From assembly GCA_029258795.1 (NCBI GenBank), contig JAPDKB010000002.1:1-64000 (forward strand): 64,000 nucleotides of DNA. Reading direction: 5' to 3'. This document shows, in pieces, positions 52,975 through 63,773 of the stretch (position 1 is its first letter; each line of letters starts with the position of its first letter). The notes beneath the pieces are model-generated. The model was given only the letters and a program-made list of their open reading frames with translations, was not told the origin of the DNA and did not search any database. Origin of the DNA: an archaeon (GTDB taxonomy: Archaea > EX4484-52 > WAPT01). Position numbers and translations under genes: made by a program.

Positions 52975-53752
52975 GGACATGTCAACTTAAGAACCAATTT
53001 CTCCACTCTGGCATAAAAATCAAAATAAGGGGGCTCAGCATATCTTGATTTTGCAAAACACACCTTAAAGGAGGTGATATACCATGCTGAGCCCCCATAT
53101 AGATGAAATGTTCTCAAGGATATTTAAAAGAAACAAAAAGCTGAAAGAAAAACAAGATAAAGCCAGTATTGCTTTATTTCTCGGGATTATCATACAGAAA
53201 AGCAGGAGATGAAACAGATATGAGCCATGAGAACGTGAGAAAGTTATTCAGAAAAACGAAAGAATTTCTCAGGGAAATAAAGCCAGTAAAAAGAAAAACG
53301 ATAGCAATGGATGAGACGGTGATAAAAACAAACGGGAGGAGATGTTACATTTACGCAGCTTACGCATGAGGGCTTATGCAGCAAGAAGTTATTTGGCAGC
53401 TCTGGATTTTGTAAAACGGGTTTTTGGAGTTGGGTAAGAAAATAATCTCCTGTTTGCTGTTGATAAGGCTCCGCGGCATTAGACGGGTTTTTGAAAGACC
53501 CGGGTTGAGATATGTGCATGAGACTTCTGGAATGAGGAATAAAGTGTGGAGGGGGATCTTTTGGTTATTTGAAGCAGGGAAGTGTTTTGTTTTATTCACG
53601 ACAATTAATGTGAATTTGGGGTCTGTGTTTGGAAGAATGGATAAAAGGGTTGAGGGATGGAGAAGCTTTGAGGCATCTGAATTTGTTTTTGAAGTTGTTT
53701 ATGGTTTATTATGATTGGTTTGTCAGGAGGTGAGGCTTATCCGGATGCACTC
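52975..53752 (+). mobile_element. Decayed IS6-family element (archaeal type)
   Basis: Fragments IFKRN..K, LYFSGLSYRK and TIAMDETVIK..YIYAA in broken frames; degenerate ends GGACATGTCAACTTAAG and CTTATCCGGATGCACTC. Boundaries approximate. Confidence 0.7.
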
Positions 53753-53803
53753 CTTGCACATACCACAAACATTTATATATAACTTTTGCCAAAATATAAA
53801 GCC

Positions 53804-54457
53804 ATGATTAAAGATGCAATAATGTTGGTTTCTATAATGTGGGGTGGAAGGTCGAAACAATAAGAAAAGAAAGTGGAAAGAATCTTCTTTTGAAATTGAC
53901 TTTATTTTATGTTGCGCTGGGTATTGCTATATTTTTTTACTATGTTCGGGACTTTTATGTATATAATCAGGCATTGGATTTTTTGTTCGGTAAAATAGGT
54001 GGAACATTCCATACAATTTCATTCCTTTCCATTTTCCTCTTCTCCGTAGATATATTTTATTCAGAGAAGTGGAAGAGATAGATATGCTTACTTTCTGGGA
54101 ATTTTGCTGATGACTGTTTTCGTGATTTTCCTGTGGAACGTAACGTTTGCCAGTGAAATTCAGGTGGTTAAGCTTGATAAGGAGTACGTCGTAACTCACG
54201 TTTATTTTCCAGATAAATCCGAAATGATGCTTTACGTTGTTTTAGTGAGTGTAATATCATTTTTACCTATTCTCTCATTTTTAGCTTACGGAATAAAGGT
54301 TCCGGCGAAAAGAAGAAAGGCTCTAACCTATTGTTTGGGAATAGCCGTTACCGCCTCAGGAACCATGCTTTGCCTCCTTATATCCCCAATACTTGCACGA
54401 GTTATGTATCTGCTGGGTGCAGTCATCTGCTATTATGCTTTCAAAATGAAGAGTTGA
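53804..54457 (+). pseudogene. Second 7TM protein, frameshifted twice
   Basis: MIKDAIMLVS matches MLKDVIMLGS of 46901. About 13 bp are deleted near 53838 and a 4-bp AGAT duplication lies near 54078. Motifs RDFYV.N.ALD and ISP.LAR..YL.GA.ICYYAFKM are shared. Confidence 0.85.
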
Positions 54458-54461
54458 GGTA

Positions 54462-54935
54462 ATGAACATGACTGTGCTGCGAAAAAAAGAAAGAAGCATA
54501 TGTATATCCCAGAGAGAATGGGCGGTGATGACTAAAAGGTTGTATGAAGTTGCAGGAAAGGTTTTTGGTAGAGCGCTCTATGAAGGTGGACAGGTAAAAG
54601 GAAAGGAATTGGTAAAAAAATATGGCGTAAAGAAAGACGATTTGAAACAATTGCAAGAAGTAATAAAAAAAGAGGGCCTTGCAAGAAATGTGGAGATACA
54701 TGATAGAGAAATATTGGTTGAAGGTTCTTTTGAAGGAGAAGCTCTAAAACCATACACAAGGCCTGTGTGTTTTTATCTCGCAGGGATCATTGCAACCATT
54801 TATTCAAAGATAGAAAAGGAAGATGTAAAAGTTGAAGAAACGGACTGCATCTCCACAGGTAAAAAAGTGTGCAGGTTTGTCGTCAGGCCGCTTGAGTGGT
54901 ATGAAAAGATGAATGAAGTTATGGAAATAATTTGA
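54462..54935 (+). CDS. Stand-alone V4R domain protein, paralog of 47571
   Basis: LYEVAGKV.GRALY.GG, GSFEGEALKP, CFYLAG, VEETDCI and WYEKM.EVME motifs shared with 47571. Confidence 0.88.
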   Translation: MNMTVLRKKERSICISQREWAVMTKRLYEVAGKVFGRALYEGGQVKGKELVKKYGVKKDDLKQLQEVIKKEGLARNVEIHDREILVEGSFEGEALKPYTRPVCFYLAGIIATIYSKIEKEDVKVEETDCISTGKKVCRFVVRPLEWYEKMNEVMEII

Positions 54936-55059
54936 AAAAAGTAAGCATGTTTTGGCTTCGTTTCCTTATATAAAGGGACAAGCAATTGCGACTTACTTAT
55001 TCATATTATATCGTTTGGATAGAGGATGCTTGGAACTTTTGAAGTGAGAGGCTTTGGGA

Positions 55060-55335
55060 CACCTATGTAAGCCACCTCCAAACATTTTTATTGGTTATAA
55101 GCTATATATCTCTATCGAACAAACACCTATTCGCGGTCTAAGCCGCAGTATAGCATCTTCGTTCATGGGGATAGGGAAAGCTTAATCAAAATGTCGCAGT
55201 CTTAAGCTGCATGTCCCAAGTCAAGCTTTTCCCTATCCCCTAAACATTTCCTTTCTTTTAAGCATGAAGTAAATTGCAATGCATAACTTTCTTGCTGCAG
55301 CAACTATTGTTTTGTGTGCTTCATAAATACCCACG
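55060..55335 (-). mobile_element. IS110-family remnant: transposase C-terminus (55233-~55325) plus intact downstream non-coding end
   Basis: TIVAAARKLCIAIYFMLKRKE is a typical IS110 C-terminal helix. Junction GGCTTTGGGA-CA-CCTATG at 55050-55067. Confidence 0.75.
55115..55240 (-). ncRNA. Predicted bridge/seek RNA of the IS110 element (target-binding loop and donor-binding loop)
   Basis: Two consecutive stem / internal-loop / hairpin units; loop strands match the flanking target and the element end (see findings). Confidence 0.75.
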
Positions 55336-55383
55336 GTGAGAGTCTGGGTCTTCTGGTGGCTATGCCCGACCGGGTTTTTTGAT

Positions 55384-56264
55384 ATGAGAGTGTGCATTGT
55401 TGGTCCTGCGAATCCTGGCGAGACAGAGATAGCTCTCACCGAGGCCGCCAAAAAGCGCTATTCCAAGGTATTGTACGCGCCCTTTTCCCGTCTCAGGATA
55501 GAAATGGTTGCCGGAGAGCCGAGAGCCTTCTACAAGGAATAGACCTTTCAGAGTTTGACATTGTCATACCCCGCGTCAGGAGGAGCGACGCGGATTTCGC
55601 ATACGTCCTCTTAGGGGTTCTCGAGGACCTGGGAGTCTATTCTCCAATCTCGAGGGACAGCATTCTCTACGGGTTCAACGAGTATCTCATACCTTTCATT
55701 CTCGGGAGGGCTGGGGTCGAGACCCTCACAACCCTCCTGGGCTCTACCCGGGCCGCCCTCGAGAAATCGATCTCGAGGCTGAGGTTCCCCGTGGTGGTAA
55801 AACTCCCCCACAACAAGGACGGGGCAATGATAGTGGACAGCGAGAAGATCGCCAGGTGCGTGCTCGACACTCTCGAGAGCCTCGGAGAGCCGATAATAGT
55901 CCAGGAGATGCTCGAGGGATCTGAGAGCTTCAGCATCCTCTATATCGGGGAGAGAACATATTGCATAGAAAAGCACAACGGGACCGCGAGAAAGAGAAAG
56001 CTTGGCATAGAAGAAAAGCGGACCGCGAGGCGCATGACATCCCTCCTGGGAGCGAGCGTGTGTCAGCTGAACGGAATGATCTCTGGAGATAGGCTCGTGG
56101 TCATAGACCTCAACATCAACCCCTGGGTGCACAGACTCCAGGAGCACTTCAAGACCAACCTGTTCGAAAAGATCCTGGACCACCTGGAGAGCGGGTACTC
56201 TTCCTCTCGACGGGGCACTATCCTAGACAAGTTCCTGAAATGGTTCGAGGAGATGAGGTGGTAG
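55384..56264 (+). pseudogene. RimK-like ATP-grasp protein with a one-base frameshift near 55536
   Basis: MRVCIVG...FYK in one frame continues as GIDLSEFDIVIPR..FPVVVK..IVQE..DLNINP in another. GC-rich relative to flanks. Confidence 0.75.
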
Positions 56265-56265
56265 A

Positions 56266-56430
56266 GTGTACAACGTTCTCATTACGGCATCGCCAAGAGT
56301 CTTGTGGACTACCCGCCAGCTTATTGAGGAGGGCAGGAAGAAGTTCAACCTCCACGTTGTCTCTCTATATGTTATCAATATTGAGGTTTCTCCCGGGATC
56401 GTCTCGTGCAGGCACAAGCGCTATTTATAA
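56266..56430 (+). pseudogene. N-terminal fragment of a second RimK-like gene
   Basis: Manual translation MYNVLITASPRVLWTTRQLIEEGRKKF resembles the RimK N-terminus; ends at the GC-to-AT boundary. Confidence 0.5.
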
Positions 56431-56434
56431 ACGT

Positions 56435-57718
56435 TTAGTTTTTGCGGGAGAATAAGTCCTTATAATGACCCCAGTCCAGAATCTCCTTTAAGAAATCATT
56501 TATTTTAGACTCCAACATTATGAGCCTTCCATCAGGGTCATAAACCCTTTCCAGAATATTTATGCGCTCGTCCAAAGTATTCCCATTTAAGCCTTGATAA
56601 AGAGGAGAGGAAAGAACTTCATACAGTTTTTTAAGAATTTGTTCTTCACAAGCAAGAGCTTTACATTCCCGGATTTCCGATTTATATTTTTTAATTTCTT
56701 CAACCCTATTCTTCATTATTGAAATGCTTTCGCTTATTTTCTTCAGTTTTTCTTCACAATCCTCTACTCCCTTTATACTGTATTTCTTAAGCCAGATTTT
56801 TAATATCTGTGGCGGGAAAGTTTTCGGATTCTCTAGTATAATCCCCGAAAGATTTTCATCTCTTACTACCGAATTAATTTCATTGAAGATATCATCTCTG
56901 TTTATAACGTAATCCCATTTTATTTCTATACCTTCCCGTGTTTTTTTTCCAAATTTATTCAACATATTAACAAAACTTCTCGGCAGATTGTTTGAATGTT
57001 TCTCCCACATATACTCTATTTTTCTGTCAGCTTTCACTCTATAGACTGAAAATAGACACGAAGAAAGTGGAGGTTCTACGCAGATTGGAAGACCTGAGAT
57101 GTCTTCCAGACCTGAGATCTCTTCCAGATTTTCAGATTCTATATAACGATTATACTCATAGATTGGGTTTTTTGTTGATATTATAATTCTCTTGCCTTCA
57201 TCCCGTTGCTCAAGGGCTATTAATGCAAGTTCATTCATGACAGCTTTTCCTATGTCTCTTGTAGCTTCTCTTGCGACAAGATCTCCTACGTAGTCCCAGT
57301 TATCGATGCATACAACCTCTGCCTCATTTATAAGCTTTTTTGGGTCAGTTAGATCGGCTTTTAGGGTCCATTCCCATTTTTCTCTATTTTCCTCTGAAAG
57401 ATATATTCTAGGGTCAAATGCCTTTATATCTCCTGTGAAGATATCGAAATATACTCCTGCAGGAAATATATCTTCTTCCGCTAAAATATTAAACGCAGCT
57501 AGAATTCTGGTGGTTTTTCCTATACCTCTTGTTCCACGAAGTTCTATATTATCTGACTTGATCCTATCTGCTAATATTTTCGAGTCCAAATAATATACTT
57601 TACATTTTAGTATGTCATTCAATAGATTATAGTCCATTTCTTCCGCTCTGAGCGGAATATTCGGAGAGTAATCTTCTGATGTCACTTGATTTGGACTTTT
57701 AATATCAGTTTCCTTCAT
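56435..57718 (-). CDS. Orphan P-loop NTPase, AT-rich
   Basis: Walker A GTRGIGKT and Walker B-like VVCIDN. The track start at 57775 lies inside an IS terminal repeat, so ATG 57718 is preferred. Confidence 0.7.
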   Translation of the reverse strand: MKETDIKSPNQVTSEDYSPNIPLRAEEMDYNLLNDILKCKVYYLDSKILADRIKSDNIELRGTRGIGKTTRILAAFNILAEEDIFPAGVYFDIFTGDIKAFDPRIYLSEENREKWEWTLKADLTDPKKLINEAEVVCIDNWDYVGDLVAREATRDIGKAVMNELALIALEQRDEGKRIIISTKNPIYEYNRYIESENLEEISGLEDISGLPICVEPPLSSCLFSVYRVKADRKIEYMWEKHSNNLPRSFVNMLNKFGKKTREGIEIKWDYVINRDDIFNEINSVVRDENLSGIILENPKTFPPQILKIWLKKYSIKGVEDCEEKLKKISESISIMKNRVEEIKKYKSEIRECKALACEEQILKKLYEVLSSPLYQGLNGNTLDERINILERVYDPDGRLIMLESKINDFLKEILDWGHYKDLFSRKN

Positions 57719-57755
57719 AGATAGAAATTTTTGACATAAAATTTTAAATAATTTT

Positions 57756-58671
57756 GGCTCCACGCCATAAAACATATAAAAAACATTTAATTCGGCAAGG
57801 ATTCATAACAAAAACAAGAGCTTTCTCTATTCCATCATCCAATTAATTTCCCATAAATTCAAAAACGAAGAAAATTTTTTCATGTTCTTAAAACCGCGAA
57901 ACTTTCTGTATCTGTTCCTGAGCCATGAGATCAAACCTTCTGCCCTGTTATTGCTAAGAAAATAAATCATACCTTTATGAAAAACAATCTTTTTTTCAAA
58001 ATGAGCTATAACACGCTTAATCTTTCTAATTCTTAACCCCTTTCTCAGGGTTTTACTATCATATCCATACCATCCATCCGTTACTATTATCTCAGGTTTG
58101 TATCCCGCATTCTCTATAGCTTTTCTAAGCAATCTAACAACTTCTTTGCTTTCCCTTCTATCACTAACATGCATTGCCATAATTCTTGATCTTTCATCGC
58201 AGCAAACATAAAGATAGTTCATTCTTCCCTTAGCTTTAACATACATCTCATCCAAATGCCATACCTCTGCAATTTTTTCAAATTCCTTATTCTTTGCCTT
58301 AAGCTCTTTGAGAAACTTTTTATCCTTTCCAAATTTATGTATCCAGTTAAGAACAGTTCTTGCAGGAACTCTTATTCCTTTAAATTTTTCCATAATCTTC
58401 TCAACATCATAGGTTGAAACAACAAATCTTGAGTAAAGCCACAGGCAAAGCATAACAATCTCTTTATCATATCTTATCCTCGCAAATTCGTCCATACCTT
58501 TTTCTGAGAAAACGTAGAAACATTTTTTGCATCTGTATCTCTGGTATTTCTTATCTTTATGTTTGTAAAAACCCAGCTTCCATATATCTCTTGATGAGCA
58601 TCTGGGACATGAAATCTTCATGAATTTTTTATTATGAATGAGGTTATTTATATGTTTTTTGGCGTAGAACC
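57756..58671 (-). mobile_element. IS6-like element with 25-bp TIRs; transposase 57827-58621
   Basis: GGCTCCACGCCATAAAACATATAAA versus GGTTCTACGCCAAAAAACATATAAA (22/25 match). CPRC..QRYRCKKC zinc ribbon; WHLDEMY, VTDG and NNRAE motifs. Confidence 0.88.
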
Positions 58672-59611
58672 CATTAATTTCTCTATTACTGCCAGAGTTT
58701 TCCCTATTAAATTTGTTTTTAAATTAAGCAAAAATTCGAAAAAGCTTACCCATAAGCTAAGATATTTCTTGCTTATCCCCCTAAACACCCTATACCATGA
58801 TTTTAAAAAAGAAAATCTATTCTCTGCATTGTTAATATGAACATTGCCTTCCGCAAACCTTTTCTTGTTATGCGGGATTATTCCATGTTTATAACCTTTT
58901 CTCTCTATTTCCTTTGTATAAATAGGAAAGTCATCAGTATTTACTATAGAGCCTTTCTCAACATAAGTTTCGAGTAGCTCTAAAACAAGCTCTTCACTTA
59001 AGCCTTCCAGAGCTACGAAGAATATGCTCTTACCTTTTCTTTCAGTTAAAACTATGACTGGAGTTTTGCCTTCTTTTAGCCCACCTCTACCTTTAATTCC
59101 AGTTCCACCCCTCTTCATAGGCTTTCTAGAAAGCCTTCTATTACCCTTTTCACCAGCTGTTAGATAGGTTTCATCCATCTCAACATTAACTTTTAGCTTG
59201 GAAGCTATTTGCCTTGCAAGCAAATCTTGCTTGATTTTCTTAGCTGCTTTCCAAACATGCTCATATTTTCTACCAAGATCGATTGCTATTGAATAAATGC
59301 TTCTTCCAGCCGAATGCTCTTTTATTATATAAGACCATTCCCAAATCGGTAGCTTTGATTTATCGAATATCGTTTTGGTTCTATTGTTGAAAGTTCTTTT
59401 GCATTTTTTGCAAAGATAGCGTTGAAAGCCTTTCTTATCCTCACCCCTCTTAACAACCTCCTTTGACCCGCAGAAAACGCACCTTACTCCTTCTTTCCAT
59501 CTAAGCTTTTGGATTATTTCTATGCACTTCTCATCACCTGGGGGCAAAATCTCTTGCAGTCAGCATACATTGTTATTTTATAGTTTTCTATTTTCGTTAT
59601 GAGATGTGAGC
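58672..59611 (-). mobile_element. IS1595-family element, 3' end interrupted by the IS6-like element; transposase to ~59547
   Basis: RW..GVRCVFCGS, VEMDETY, TDDF..Y and HINNAENRFS motifs. The ORF runs into the IS6 TIR. Outer boundary approximate. Confidence 0.85.
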
Positions 59612-59647
59612 GAAAGCTTTTTGTAGTTGATTTTTTGAACTTTGTTT

Positions 59648-60457
59648 ATGATGCCCGGTAAAAAAGCTGTGATTCTAATAGGAGGAATGATAATGGTTGT
59701 GGCAGTTCTGAGCTTATGCGTGCAGAAACCGGAAGAAGGGGCACCCACGATTCAGCCAGGAAAGGAATTAAAGCTTTCTGATTTCCCTGAAGTGTTTAGC
59801 GAGAGTACTTTGATTGTTGTTGGAGACAACGCTTCTGAGGTTGAAGTTCAAGCAGCTAATGAAATTGCTGAATATTTGGAGGATGAGACCGGGAATAAAC
59901 CTTTGATAAAGAAGTATTCTGAGGTTAGTGAGGAAGATAAGAGAAATTACAACTTGATTATTGTTGGCGCTTCTAATTCTAACCCTATGCTAAGGAAAGT
60001 CTCTGAGGAATGTACAAGAAAGAACTTCAAAAAATTAGAATTTAAGGGAGTTAATAGTTATTGGCAGGGCACAGGTAAAGGATACATACTTATTTTAGAA
60101 AACTTATGGTCGACAAGTAAATGTATGTTGATTGTTGATGGATATGACAGCAGCGGGCTAGAATCTGCAGTTAGCACCCTTTTAAATACAGATATAATTA
60201 TGTCCATAAACAATAGCGGTATTTTAGTAAAATTAGAGAGTAGTACTCGAATACAAACTCTTCCAGTGTCTAAACTTTCAAAAATAGTGGCTAAAGATAT
60301 TGCAGCAGAGTATTTGATAAAACGATGTCAAACTATTCCTGAGGATAGTTTTAAGCTGAAAGTGTCGGATTTTGGAGATTACTGGCTAATTGAAGGAGGC
60401 TGTATCAAACTTCTAGTAGATAAAAATAATGGTTTTGTAGAGGAGGTGAAATCTTGA
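59648..60457 (+). CDS. Lipoprotein-like protein with S-layer C-terminal-type domain
   Basis: Signal peptide ending LSLC; IVVGDNAS...NLIIVG..NSNP motif. Confidence 0.7.
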   Translation: MMPGKKAVILIGGMIMVVAVLSLCVQKPEEGAPTIQPGKELKLSDFPEVFSESTLIVVGDNASEVEVQAANEIAEYLEDETGNKPLIKKYSEVSEEDKRNYNLIIVGASNSNPMLRKVSEECTRKNFKKLEFKGVNSYWQGTGKGYILILENLWSTSKCMLIVDGYDSSGLESAVSTLLNTDIIMSINNSGILVKLESSTRIQTLPVSKLSKIVAKDIAAEYLIKRCQTIPEDSFKLKVSDFGDYWLIEGGCIKLLVDKNNGFVEEVKS

Positions 60458-60577
60458 AGGCCAATTAATGACCTTCTTTGTATTATTCGTTCTCTTGTGT
60501 CCTACTGCATACGACATTCTATCATCGAGATACTCTCTAAAATTCTATAGTAGTAACCAACTTTTGAAAGTTCACAT

Positions 60578-61506
60578 TCATGTATTATCACCTCCTACTA
60601 ACATGGAACCGTCGCTACATCCTTCAGCCTGGCATGGAACTTTTACATTTTTTAAACCCCAGTCGTGGATCACTACTAAATTTAGACTCTTATTTAGATT
60701 AATCACAGCACAACTATGGTTGACAATATAGTTCAGAGTTGGATAACCTACGAAATAAGTTTCGTTTGATGATAAAAAGCTCTTGTTAACAATTATTCTC
60801 CCGTAATATTTATCTTCGCCAACCTGGTGTAAAGGTGCTGTAACTATTTCTTTAATCGACTCGAACGTTCTTGTACTTTTATTATATCCGATCAATTGAT
60901 ATAAAGTCACTACTTTAGGTGGCTCTCCACTTAACTCATATTTTGGATCTGATGGTTCATCTGTTAGAACTAAAACATCTATTCTGATCTTGTCCTTAAT
61001 GCTTGGAGCAATTACTACACTGGTTTCATTTTTAATCAGTGCAATCGGGTTTAGTTCAAGTCCCGCACTATACACCCCCACTCATCCCACCCTTCAACCA
61101 GTAACATCGCCTTATTTTTATTCCAAGGATTCCTCAAAATTTCCAAAACACCCTTACCCTCTCCCGGAAATGTATCATTAACTTCCAAAACATCAACCAT
61201 AGAATAAACTTCTATCAGCATGAGATTGGAATTCGGCGTGCCAACAACAACTAAATTGTGGTTTCTTTTATCTTTCTCCGTGATTTCAGAATATTTTTTT
61301 ATTAAGGGTTTATCCCCTGTTTCATTTTCCAAATAAGAGGTAATCTCGTTTGCGGCTTGCAATTCAATCTCAGAAGCATTATCACCAACGATAATTAAGG
61401 TATTATTCCCGAAATTTTGCCAGAGGAAAATGCCTATTATCAAAAGGATTAAAATTACGGTTCCTGCAATAATTAAGATCTTTCTGTTCATCATAATGTT
61501 TATCAT
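60578..61506 (-). pseudogene. Convergent paralog with the same S-layer-type domain, split by a one-base frameshift in a G run near 61077
   Basis: LIIVGDNASEIELQAANEI..NLVVVG.PNSN motif; adding one G joins EGWDEWG to VYSAGLELNP. Confidence 0.7.
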
Positions 61507-61552
61507 TAAGTCTCATTATGCTTTTTTAATTATAAAATTTACGGCTCCAAGC

Positions 61553-62696
61553 GGCTTCGAGACAAAATTCATAGCTTGAGTTTTCGAGCTATGAAGATCA
61601 GAACTCCATACCACAAAAATTAGTTAGCTAAAACATTTCCGTATAAAAAACCATATTATACAGCATGGGGGATAAAAAGAAAAGAAAAATAACAACCGAG
61701 GAAATAAGAGACATTACAAACAAACTTGATAAAATAATCAAATATTACAAAGAGAAATACGGGGAAGATAAGAGCAGGAGAGACTGGCGTACATATGAGC
61801 AGAGAAGAACATTAAGGATGAAGCAGGCAGGGAGAGAGCTAAAAAATCTTATAGAAAGGGCTGCAGAGAATATAGAAATAGCTAAGGATAACAACAGGGG
61901 AAGAAAGCCGAAGCTTACAGCCAAGGACAAAGCCCTGATCATTCTTATAAAGGAAATATTCGATCTGAGCAACAGAGAACTTGCTGATATGATATTCATC
62001 TTTTCCTTAATGGCAGGAGTTGATGTAAGTTATAAAACCATTGAGAGAGCTTACGATGATGAGCTTGTTAAGTTAAGCCTGCACAACTTATTCGTTCTCA
62101 TGGTTAAGGAAAAGATTATAGATGATGTTGAGCTTGCTGGAGATGGAACTGGATACAGCTTGAGCATTAAGAAGCAATATGCTGATATTGAGGATGAGGG
62201 AAAGCAAAGAAAGGATTTCGTTTATTACTTTGCTCTGCTCGATTTAAGAACAAATCTTTATGTTGGATATGGCTACAGTAAAAGGTCGGAGAGGGATGCT
62301 TTTGATAAGGCCATGAAAATTATGAGTAAGCTCGGCATTAATGTTAAGAGTGTGAGGCTTGATAGATATTATTCAAGCAACGCTGTGGTTAAAGAATATT
62401 TTGATGATAAGGATGTTAAGCTTTATTTAATTCCCAAGAAGAATGCTTCTGTTAAAGGCTGTAAGAAATGGAAGGAAGTTATGCATGGCTTTGCTGATGA
62501 TGTTTACGGGTTTTTGCGTGAGTATTTTAAAAGGAATAAAGTTGAAAGCATGTTTTCCTTTGATAAGCGTAAGTTTTCTTCTCGATTAAGGGTCAGGAAG
62601 GATGAGAGAATTGCTACGAGCTTGCTTGCAAGGACTGTCTTGCATAATTTGTTTTGGTTTTATGGTTAGCTATTGGGTTAATTTTGTCCCAAAGCC
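61553..62696 (+). mobile_element. Complete IS with 17-bp TIRs and intact DDE transposase (61665-62669); possibly ISNCY/ISA1214-like
   Basis: Left GGCTTCGAGACAAAATT versus right (reverse complement) GGCTTTGGGACAAAATT, 15/17 match. GDGTG, RLDRYY and R..VESMFS..KR motifs. Family name tentative. Confidence 0.85.
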
Positions 62697-62753
62697 ACCA
62701 CAACCACAAACTTTATATACGACGATCGCAATATTTCTATCTGGGTGATTTGG

Positions 62754-63773
62754 ATGGCGGAGAATTCTCCTAATTACCGATATGATCCTCTCATAGGCGA
62801 GCTTTACTTGAATAAAATCTCGTGTGAGTTAACAACCAGAAAGTTTCACAATGACTTGAGGAGGGAGTTCGAGGCCATTCTGGGCGCGGTAGCTAAATCC
62901 ATGTTCTACACGGTGGGTAAGGTAACGGGCATGATTGTTGCAAAGTACTTTGATGATATTGATGTGCTTTCGTGGATGGGTTGGGGTGTGCCTCTGGTTA
63001 AAAAAGATGGAAGCGTGGAAGTTAAAAATTCTTACATGACCATGTATCGGAGCGAGATAGGCAAGAAGTCATGCGATATCGTTGCAGGATTTCTGGCAGG
63101 GTGGTTCAGTAGGAAGGAAAAGGATAATGTCGATTTTATAGAATCGAGGTGCGCCTCAACCACTAAGTTCAAGACCTGCAGGTTTGAAAGGGTTGAAAAG
63201 AATGTGGCTGTCGAAGTACCTAAAATCAGGATGAAGAAGCCCAGAGAACACCTGAAAAATGTGAATATAAACCTGAAACCATCCAGTGGTGAGATAATTT
63301 ATAGGGGAGATTCGTCTCTCATCATTCCACGTGGCTTTACCGCGATCTTTCAGAGGGAATTTGAAAGGGTGATCGGGGCTGTTGCTTCCAGAAAAATGTA
63401 CGAAGTTGTGAAGAAAATAAGTTATGAGGCAGTTGTGAAGGAGCAGGGGTTCAGGTTTATTGGACTTGCTATTCTTCCCAAATTCATCCGTGCAAAGCTG
63501 CTTCTTCATGAAGAGCTTGTGCAGCTACCCGAAAGAGGTTTTGGGAATGTCAGGGTTTTAAGACTGGATTTGAAGGAAGGGATTCTGCTGGAAATTGATA
63601 ATTCTTACAACGCATTCACCTACGGTAAGGTTGGCAAGCCCGTGTGTCACACGCTTGCAGGAGTTCTTGCGGGAGGTGCCAAGGCGGTGATTGGCGGAGA
63701 TTGGGAATGCGTGGAGAATAAATGCGTTGCTGCAGGAGATGGTGTCTGCGAGTTCGAGTTGAAGCCGGCGTGA
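62754..63773 (+). CDS. Protein with two tandem V4R domains
   Basis: GWG..NSY..SCDIVAG..ESRC..CRF followed by GFG..NSY..PVCHTLAG..ENKC..GDGVCEF. Confidence 0.88.
   Translation: MAENSPNYRYDPLIGELYLNKISCELTTRKFHNDLRREFEAILGAVAKSMFYTVGKVTGMIVAKYFDDIDVLSWMGWGVPLVKKDGSVEVKNSYMTMYRSEIGKKSCDIVAGFLAGWFSRKEKDNVDFIESRCASTTKFKTCRFERVEKNVAVEVPKIRMKKPREHLKNVNINLKPSSGEIIYRGDSSLIIPRGFTAIFQREFERVIGAVASRKMYEVVKKISYEAVVKEQGFRFIGLAILPKFIRAKLLLHEELVQLPERGFGNVRVLRLDLKEGILLEIDNSYNAFTYGKVGKPVCHTLAGVLAGGAKAVIGGDWECVENKCVAAGDGVCEFELKPA

Follow-up and report, generated by a model that had tools for sequence, protein, structure and literature searches.

IS110-family insertion sequences (ISs) choose their targets with the help of RNA, and this RNA-guided choice is established for IS110 and IS1111 elements (PMC11208160; PMC11187229). 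In IS1111-type elements the RNA lies downstream of the recombinase gene, and in their seekRNAs the complement of the top strand is placed 5' of the complement of the bottom strand, an order that is reversed in the IS110 type (Siddiquee et al., PMC11187229). The same source gives the IS1111 subgroup subterminal inverted repeats of 11–13 bp, beyond which the element extends by about 7 bp at its left terminus and by 3 bp at its right. Other mobile elements are among the targets: the seekRNA of ISEc21 targets a conserved stretch of IS3-family transposase genes (PMC11187229), and IS4321 and IS5075 insert into Tn21-family repeats, according to a title cited in PMC11208160. For archaea, 662 homologues of IS110 recombinases have been reported in 2,835 genomes (10.1101/2024.06.21.599552), and haloarchaeal members were included in the seekRNA paper (PMC11187229); in the literature we found no archaeal IS110 or IS1111 element that targets the repeat of another IS, and the supplements of PMC11208160 and PMC11187229 may list some. 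Here we analyze a stretch of 64,000 nucleotides (contig JAPDKB010000002.1, positions 1 to 64,000, assembly GCA_029258795.1), referred to as the window. An earlier note on this DNA, made from the sequence alone, had proposed an archaeal host, and indeed the archaeal small-subunit (SSU; 1407.7 bits) and large-subunit (LSU) rRNA models win their clans in the rRNA operon of the genome; the host phylum comprises 42 species genomes in one order. On the minus strand of the window, from 55062 to about 55304, lies what is very probably the remnant of an IS1111-type element, which still bears a bridge RNA or seekRNA and had inserted into the terminal inverted repeat of an IS5-like element.

On the plus strand, positions 55050–55066 read GGCTTTGGGA-CA-CCTAT, and the first 12 of these bases (GGCTTTGGGACA, 55050–55061) are identical, 12 out of 12, to positions 1–12 of the right inverted repeat of an intact IS5-like element on the same strand (61553–62696, 1144 bp, with a 334-aa transposase at 61665–62669). 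This 12-bp stub is followed by CCTAT here and by AAATT in the intact repeat. The repeats of the intact element are GGCTTCGAGACAAAATT on the left and GGCTTTGGGACAAAATT on the right, the latter 17 bp long, at 62680–62696 (read on the minus strand, 62696–62680). The sequence outside the stub differs from that outside the intact copy, and the stub is therefore not a duplicate of the flank of that copy. Its final two bases, CA at 55060–55061, form a core shared with the remnant, the minus-strand tail of which finishes ...GGAGGTGGCTTACATAGG-TG at 55060/55062. The element end has support beyond the RNA as well, in that identity to the repeat stops there and a contig from another sample starts 4 bases away. 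The junction is thus what the earlier note had taken it to be: a 12-bp repeat stub, core included, fused to the donor end. Proceeding inwards from the core, the remnant consists of a right-end tail of 55 nt (55062–55116), a predicted RNA unit with a donor-binding loop (unit 2, 55117–55164), a second predicted unit with a target-binding loop (unit 1, 55167–55240), and the last 23 codons with the TAG stop of an IS110-family-like recombinase gene (55233–55304), all on the minus strand; only some 245–275 bp of the element survive.

The two units occupy the minus strand from 55240 to 55117 and start at the stop codon of the peptide. They are stacked, each is made of a stem, an internal loop and a 4-bp hairpin, and as a predicted non-coding RNA next to the gene they show an arrangement typical of the IS110 family. 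Unit 1 (55240–55167) has a basal stem of 19 bp with one bulged A and the hairpin GCAG-CTTAAGA-CTGC, with the loop strands CTTGGGACAT (5' strand, 55220–55211) and GACATTTTGA (3' strand, 55195–55186); the open frame, which ends VAAARKLCIAIYFMLKRKEMFRG-TAG, places its stop codon (55235–55233) within the base of this unit. Unit 2 (55164–55117) has a 7-bp stem (GAACGAA/TTTGTTC) and the hairpin GCGG-CTTAGA-CCGC, with the loop strands GATGCTATACT (5' strand, 55157–55147) and GAATAGGTG (3' strand, 55132–55124). When the 184 nt of 55245–55062 were folded, the free energy was -59.8 kcal/mol, compared with a mean of -40.6 ± 4.2 kcal/mol for shuffled sequences (z = -4.57), and 0 of 200 shuffles folded as stably. 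The two-unit fold described in the earlier note is also the predicted one, and all of the strings that it had given were found in their places, letter for letter.

Both internal loops read as guides to DNA at this locus. The 5' strand of unit 1 contains TTGGGA-CA, the final 8 bases of the stub, and the 3' strand contains ATTTTG, the reverse complement of CA-AAAT, of which AAAT follows the core in the intact repeat and is absent from the stub. In other words, the target-loop strands match both sides of a target around a core, as in the IS110 family, and together they spell TTGGGA-CA-AAAT (TTGGGACAAAAT). This 12-mer occurs exactly once in the genome of 1,168,407 bases, at 62681–62692, inside the right repeat of the IS5-like element 7.5 kb away, the very repeat that the guide had been proposed to spell. 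The 3' strand of unit 2 contains ATAGG-TG, the last 7 bases of the remnant itself including the core, which agrees letter for letter with the earlier reading of this strand as the reverse complement of the element's own end CACCTAT. ATAGG-TG in unit 2 and ATTT-TG in unit 1 stand in the same register, with the core at loop positions 8–9 in both. Three of the four guide segments thus have their DNA partner; in the donor loop the right-end half is matched and the left end is deleted, so that one segment is without a partner, and the 5' strand of unit 2 would read this missing left end. To gauge how often such matches arise, 2,000,000 random junctions were drawn from the genome and checked for matches in one strand of each loop (5' in unit 1, 3' in unit 2). 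The core with 6 flanking bases (an 8-mer) recurred as its reverse complement in the unit 1 strand for 73 of them, the last 7 element bases were found in the unit 2 strand for 535, and a single junction, which is probably the real site itself, satisfied both conditions.

These counts bear on the possibility that the hairpin units belong to an unrelated structured RNA or a terminator and that the matches to flank and repeat are coincidental. Such an RNA would fit the lack of a relevant Rfam 15 family match to the RNA region and the weak peptide evidence described below. Rfam 15 was likewise without a relevant match on the RNA region of IS4321, which served as a positive control, and its silence on the remnant therefore carries no weight. 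Together with the rate of 1 in 2,000,000 for both junction matches, the uniqueness of the 12-mer target and its position within an IS end, and the same four-segment logic in IS4321, this makes coincidence very unlikely in our view.

The RNA evidence for the IS1111 type is stronger than the protein evidence. The RNA lies downstream of the recombinase gene, directly behind a transposase-like C-terminus, and continues to the right end, a placement characteristic of the IS1111 subgroup that the earlier note had recognized; in element orientation, TTGGGACA (the top-strand complement) precedes ATTTTG (the bottom-strand complement), which is again the IS1111 order. As to insertion at the same site and in the same orientation, there is one junction in this genome, one contig of sequencing run X4 that has the stub and the right end in another context, and no case in the 42 phylum genomes. 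On the protein side, the one NCBIfam model that a 37-aa stretch matches is NF033542 ("IS110 family RNA-guided transposase"; positions 320–342 of 343, E 0.018). The remaining peptide spans 23–27 residues, and the match may reach 55316 (HKTI...); the DEDD (RuvC-like) recombinase domains, PF01548 and PF02371, are deleted, and only C-terminal residues are left. Weak as it is, the match may be valuable by its position, since it covers the last residues of the model and ends at a stop codon that falls in the base of the RNA. Within the right-end tail, GGAGGTGGC (55079–55071) is a possible arm of a subterminal repeat. The tail also holds an A/T-rich ATATATA box on the minus strand (55109–55103), which is oriented outward at a distance of about 40 nt from the element end. 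Bacterial IS110 and IS1111 elements have promoters at their junctions, and by analogy we speculate that this box could serve as an archaeal TATA box that reads across a circle junction into the recombinase gene.

A number of results weigh against the remnant being an IS1111-type element with a bispecific guide RNA. First, the peptide match is weak: its E value is 0.107 genome-wide, where it ranks beside two chance matches. BLASTP of the peptide against the transposases of IS4321 and of an IS110-type element in a genome of the same order (L013) gave no alignment. A protein search for relatives of near length returned no candidate, one for relatives of longer length returned 13 candidates with 0 at E ≤ 0.01, and phmmer with the 37 aa against 1.84 billion representatives gave 0 at E ≤ 0.001, which for so short a query is weak evidence. 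PF02371, PF01548 and NF033542 found nothing over their cut-offs in the assembly (23 contigs, 96.3% complete). Second, in the minimum-energy fold both internal loops are closed by G-U-rich pairs, and for the 134-nt core this fold has -54.2 kcal/mol compared with -46.0 kcal/mol for the open-loop form that resembles a bridge RNA. Third, the 5' strand of unit 2 has AC instead of CA at the core position, and a search of the genome for the predicted left end found no remnant of it. Finally, the remnant DNA is present as one copy only in its own genome, that same copy is the only one in the 42 phylum genomes, exact patterns gave 0 hits in metagenome contigs and viral contigs, and a covariance model built from the single sequence (R1) detected 1 of 151 genomes, namely its own copy (the 150 relatives were blank). 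Further searches for copies were similar in outcome. The junction pattern, with up to 2 mismatches, returned only the own copy in the 42 phylum genomes; three of 60 relatives matched the remnant DNA over 27–35 nt (E 5.6e-4 to 5e-3), which we took as chance; and R1 scored at most 7.7 bits on seven loci including plasmid R751.

The full-length copies by which the earlier note had proposed to check the reading were thus absent from the collections searched, while a near-identical RNA segment was present in contigs from another study. The values that follow are from Logan contigs compared with the window, among the matching pieces listed. In run X3 the segment 55058–55279 makes up a whole contig of 222 nt (depth 39.1) with 1 difference, and in run X2 the segment 55096–55279 makes up a whole contig of 184 nt (depth 90.8), also with 1 difference. 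The host DNA in the same runs has diverged much further: 84 other letters and 32 gaps over 53804–54939 in X3 (depth 19.3), 38 other letters and 2 gaps over 55305–56386 in X3 (depth 27.8), and 47 other letters and 13 gaps over 54155–54939 in X2. With about 99.5% conservation between strains in surroundings that are 4–10% different, the segment behaves like a recently mobile element. The X3 contig begins at 55058 with GACA and the element end, and GACA is what the two repeat variants of the genome have in common beside the insertion point; this start would fit insertions in more than one repeat variant. In X4, a contig (depth 24.8, at least 37 letters on the shorter side) joins sequence like that leading up to 53595, with 10 other letters in between, to position 55049 immediately ahead of the stub, and is a second context for stub and right end.

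The same contigs locate the inner end of the remnant. In X3 and X4, the alignment of related-strain contigs with the window starts at 55305 and continues to the right, and to the left of this point they are unlike it; the inner boundary therefore probably lies at 55304/55305. The earlier span of 55050–55335 held for its strings and would have to be shortened at this end. As contigs over the left-hand gene stop aligning at 54939 and the others start at 55305, 54940–55304 is specific to the arrangement of this strain. Repeats often break or mis-join metagenome assemblies, and one could suppose that the organism carries the element intact and that assembly across a repeat produced a false join at about 55304, the more so since the GC content is 0.40 over 55062–55304 and 0.54 over 55336–55600. 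We consider this improbable: a contig of 6314 nt from the separate Logan assembly of run X1 covers 53895–58000 with 0 differences, and none of the 23 contigs carries a fragment of an IS110 recombinase. X1 may be the source sample, and this contig is thus not independent; the run is labeled as a hydrothermal vent metagenome.

A further possibility, unlikely but less so than a faulty join, is that nothing was truncated and that the segment is a non-autonomous module of RNA plus right end, moved in trans by a recombinase encoded elsewhere. There is precedent in the solo ssr9 modules, which ISPpu9 moves as separate circles; the abstract of PMC12288879 describes circles that bear no more than the small-RNA gene, and one genome with three solo copies. 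That the segment forms short separate contigs in X2 and X3, both ending at 55279, would suit such a module, although this contig end may equally be a strain variant. Against a module, at least 23 in-frame recombinase codons are kept up to a break at which host sequence starts, which looks like the end of a deletion and unlike that of an element; nothing resembling the predicted left end is found near 55279 or elsewhere in the genome, and the assembly is without a recombinase to move it. A truncated IS1111-type element hence remains the reading that we prefer, and the lack of a recombinase gene in the assembly makes the fragment a dead fossil.

The targeted element belongs to a family with relatives in sister genomes. 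Its 334-aa transposase matches the NCBIfam IS5 model NF033579 (E 4.5e-16, below the cut-off) and has no Pfam match. Because the element is single-copy in the genome, the copy into which the remnant had inserted is gone except for its 12-bp tip. Across the 42 phylum genomes, the pattern GGCTTYGRGACAAAAT, with up to 1 mismatch, was found at 23 places in 10 genomes, and a reversed control pattern at 9 places; the signal is due to GGCTGTGGGACAAAAT, of which there are 6 copies in genome G004, 5 in G037 and 1 in G027. The loci that bear it are G004:C32 (L041, 254–1774), G004:C27 and G004:C31; G037:C3, C73, C99, C105 and C117; and G027:C55. Several copies lie about 110 nt from contig ends, and the IS5-like element with GGCTGTGGGACAAAAT probably breaks the sister assemblies. 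In G004 a pair of GGCTGTGGGACAAAAT bounds an IS of 1521 bp with a 249-aa open reading frame (ORF) clearly homologous to the transposase in the window, the common blocks including SYKT-ER-YDDE, IRLDRYYS, YLIPKKN and HNLFW. One relative of the IS5-like transposase was found in genome contigs, in a Micrarchaeota metagenome-assembled genome (45% identity, repeat tip ...TGGGACATAAGT). The guide thus reads the conserved repeat core of an IS5-like group that is common in the phylum and whose repeat tip occurs in multiple copies in sister genomes. The two repeat variants of the genome differ at repeat positions 6 (T/C) and 8 (G/A), where the guide has U and G; going by base-pairing rules, wobble pairing (U-G and G-T) could enable it to read either one. 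In sister genomes, none of five further exact 12-mer stubs had an IS110 element beside it: four are in or next to ordinary genes, the ORFs of which were listed, and one is by its sequence an intact repeat variant.

Taken together, we propose that the minus strand from 55062 to about 55304 is what remains, at the 3' end, of an IS110-family element of the IS1111 type, which would keep about 23 recombinase codons, a bispecific guide RNA (bridge RNA or seekRNA) of about 125 nt and a right end of 55 nt. In the intact element, the recombinase would have loaded this RNA once it was made, the first loop pairing with both strands of the IS5-like inverted repeat at TTGGGA-CA-AAAT and the second with the element's own circle junction, ...ATAGG-TG-(ATAGCAT...); the missing left end behind the TG core is expected to resemble the reverse complement of GATGCTAT. 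At the CA/TG core, strand exchange would then place the element 12 bp inside the repeat, in a single orientation and with the right end towards the repeat tip. Such an insertion splits the repeat and would probably cripple that end of the IS5-like element, and it is in this conditional form that we retain the claim of the earlier note that the element disables the other IS. A later deletion would have taken the remainder of the recombinase gene as well as the left end, and with them the body of the IS5-like copy that had been targeted.

The locus lies in an IS-rich island (53100–62700) between two genes with a V4R domain (54462–54935 and 62745–63773), with a GC content of 0.33–0.39 over most of its length. 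Besides the IS5-like element and the IS110-type remnant, the island holds a degenerate IS6/IS240-like fragment (about 53169–53700), an IS240/IS6-like transposase (57827–58621, minus strand) and an IS1595-like transposase (58648–59547, minus strand). A RimK-like ATP-grasp gene at 55376–56264 (PF08443, E 9e-9) is split over two frames near 55540. Related-strain contigs of X2–X4 have one more A behind 55537 and one more G behind 55371, so that the copy in the window is frameshifted relative to those strains, which may reflect either a pseudogene or an assembly error. Further to the right, two contigs of related strains, one from X3 and one from X4, place 4593 other letters between 56386 and 56428, just upstream of a 446-aa ORF (56435–57775), representing an insertion in those strains or a deletion here. 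Just left of the IS5-like element, two ORFs face each other (59642–60457 on the plus strand and 61051–61506 on the minus strand) and have a common N-terminal region, ...IVGDNASE.E.QAANEI..YLE.ETG.KPLIKKYSE...DKRN.NL..VG..NSN.ML...; they look like a diverged, inverted duplication. Elsewhere in the order, three genomes (L009, L010 and L013) have IS110-type genes, which are of a different, distant lineage. In two genomes of the same genus, L009 (G027:C26) and L010 (G041:C94), the IS110-type recombinases have 444 and 465 aa, and the elements are 79% identical over about 1.6 kb, with about 150 nt of non-coding sequence upstream and about 200 nt downstream of the gene.

The window thus contains an archaeal IS1111-like remnant with a new target family and without detectable sequence relatives, the principle of which is already known in bacteria. 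The fragment itself is inert. We believe that its value lies in its readability, as a single locus can be read almost fully by the bacterial rules for bridge RNAs and seekRNAs, with target, core, orientation and own end, which supports the view that the bridge-RNA mechanism operates in archaea. The locus also adds an archaeal case of a transposon homing to the ends of another transposon family, and, as sister genomes hold several copies of the targeted family, elements of this kind may limit how far ISs expand in small archaeal genomes. More tentatively, and with doubt outweighing confidence, a lineage of IS1111-like bridge recombinases that is alive and novel in sequence may circulate in hydrothermal or sediment archaea, specialized in the conserved repeat tip (GGCT-T/G-TGGGACAAAAT) of an IS5-like family with multiple copies across the phylum. 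If so, this would be IS-against-IS parasitism in archaea and would involve an RNA-guided recombinase, probably tolerant of heat and without a close relative in the 15 billion proteins searched, of which full-length copies should be recoverable from the runs with the 222-nt contig. Public runs from which this unusual recombinase could be assembled are thereby pointed out.

Among the described systems, IS4321, which the earlier note had named, is the closest in logic. A plasmid search for diverse IS1111 members yielded IS4321/IS5075 only. As a positive control we read both IS4321 copies of plasmid R751 for guide segments, and the same strand logic was found in both. Unit 1 of IS4321 has a stem, a loop and a 4-bp hairpin (GGCT-CATTGA-AGCC); its 5' strand contains, as reverse complement, the TTCCGTTTT that spans the right junction, and its 3' strand has TATTT in common with the left flank. 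In unit 2, the 3' strand contains the right end ATAGATT, and the 5' strand is the reverse complement of ATGAG, the start of the left end. Three of these four correspondences are present in the remnant, and the fourth needs the missing left end. In both elements the RNA lies downstream of the recombinase gene, and its first unit consists of a basal stem, followed by an internal loop and closed by a hairpin of 4 bp. The 5' strand of this unit reads the core and the right flank as reverse complement, and the left flank is matched by the 3' strand; the 3' strand of the second unit is the right end, and the target is the inverted repeat of another transposable element. Even the right ends are alike, ...CATAGA-TT (GGAGTGACCATAGATT) in IS4321 and ...CATAGG-TG in the remnant. 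The two differ in that IS4321 resides on bacterial plasmids and the remnant on an archaeal chromosome, and in that the target is a 38-bp repeat of the Tn3 family for IS4321 and a 17-bp IS5-like repeat for the remnant. The RNA of IS4321 starts about 80 nt past the stop and has a longer second hairpin, whereas unit 1 of the remnant overlaps the stop and has a 19-bp basal stem. Sequence similarity between the two was not detectable (R1 at most 7.7 bits on R751, no BLASTP alignment), and only a fragment is left here.

The other known systems share less with the remnant. ISEc21 resembles it as an RNA-guided IS that has another IS as its natural target, but is of the IS110 type, with the RNA upstream of the gene, the strand order reversed and a target in coding sequence. 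ISPpu9/ssr9 shows that the small-RNA gene behind an IS110-family gene can stand alone, yet Ssr9 is reported to be dispensable for transposition, whereas the RNA of the remnant has clear target and donor guides. The bridge RNA of IS621, of the IS110 group, has target and donor internal loops as in the remnant, each reading both DNA strands around a 2-nt core. It is encoded in the left end, upstream of the recombinase gene, relative to which the remnant is inverted with respect to the element ends, and membership of the remnant in the IS110 subgroup of IS621 is accordingly not supported.

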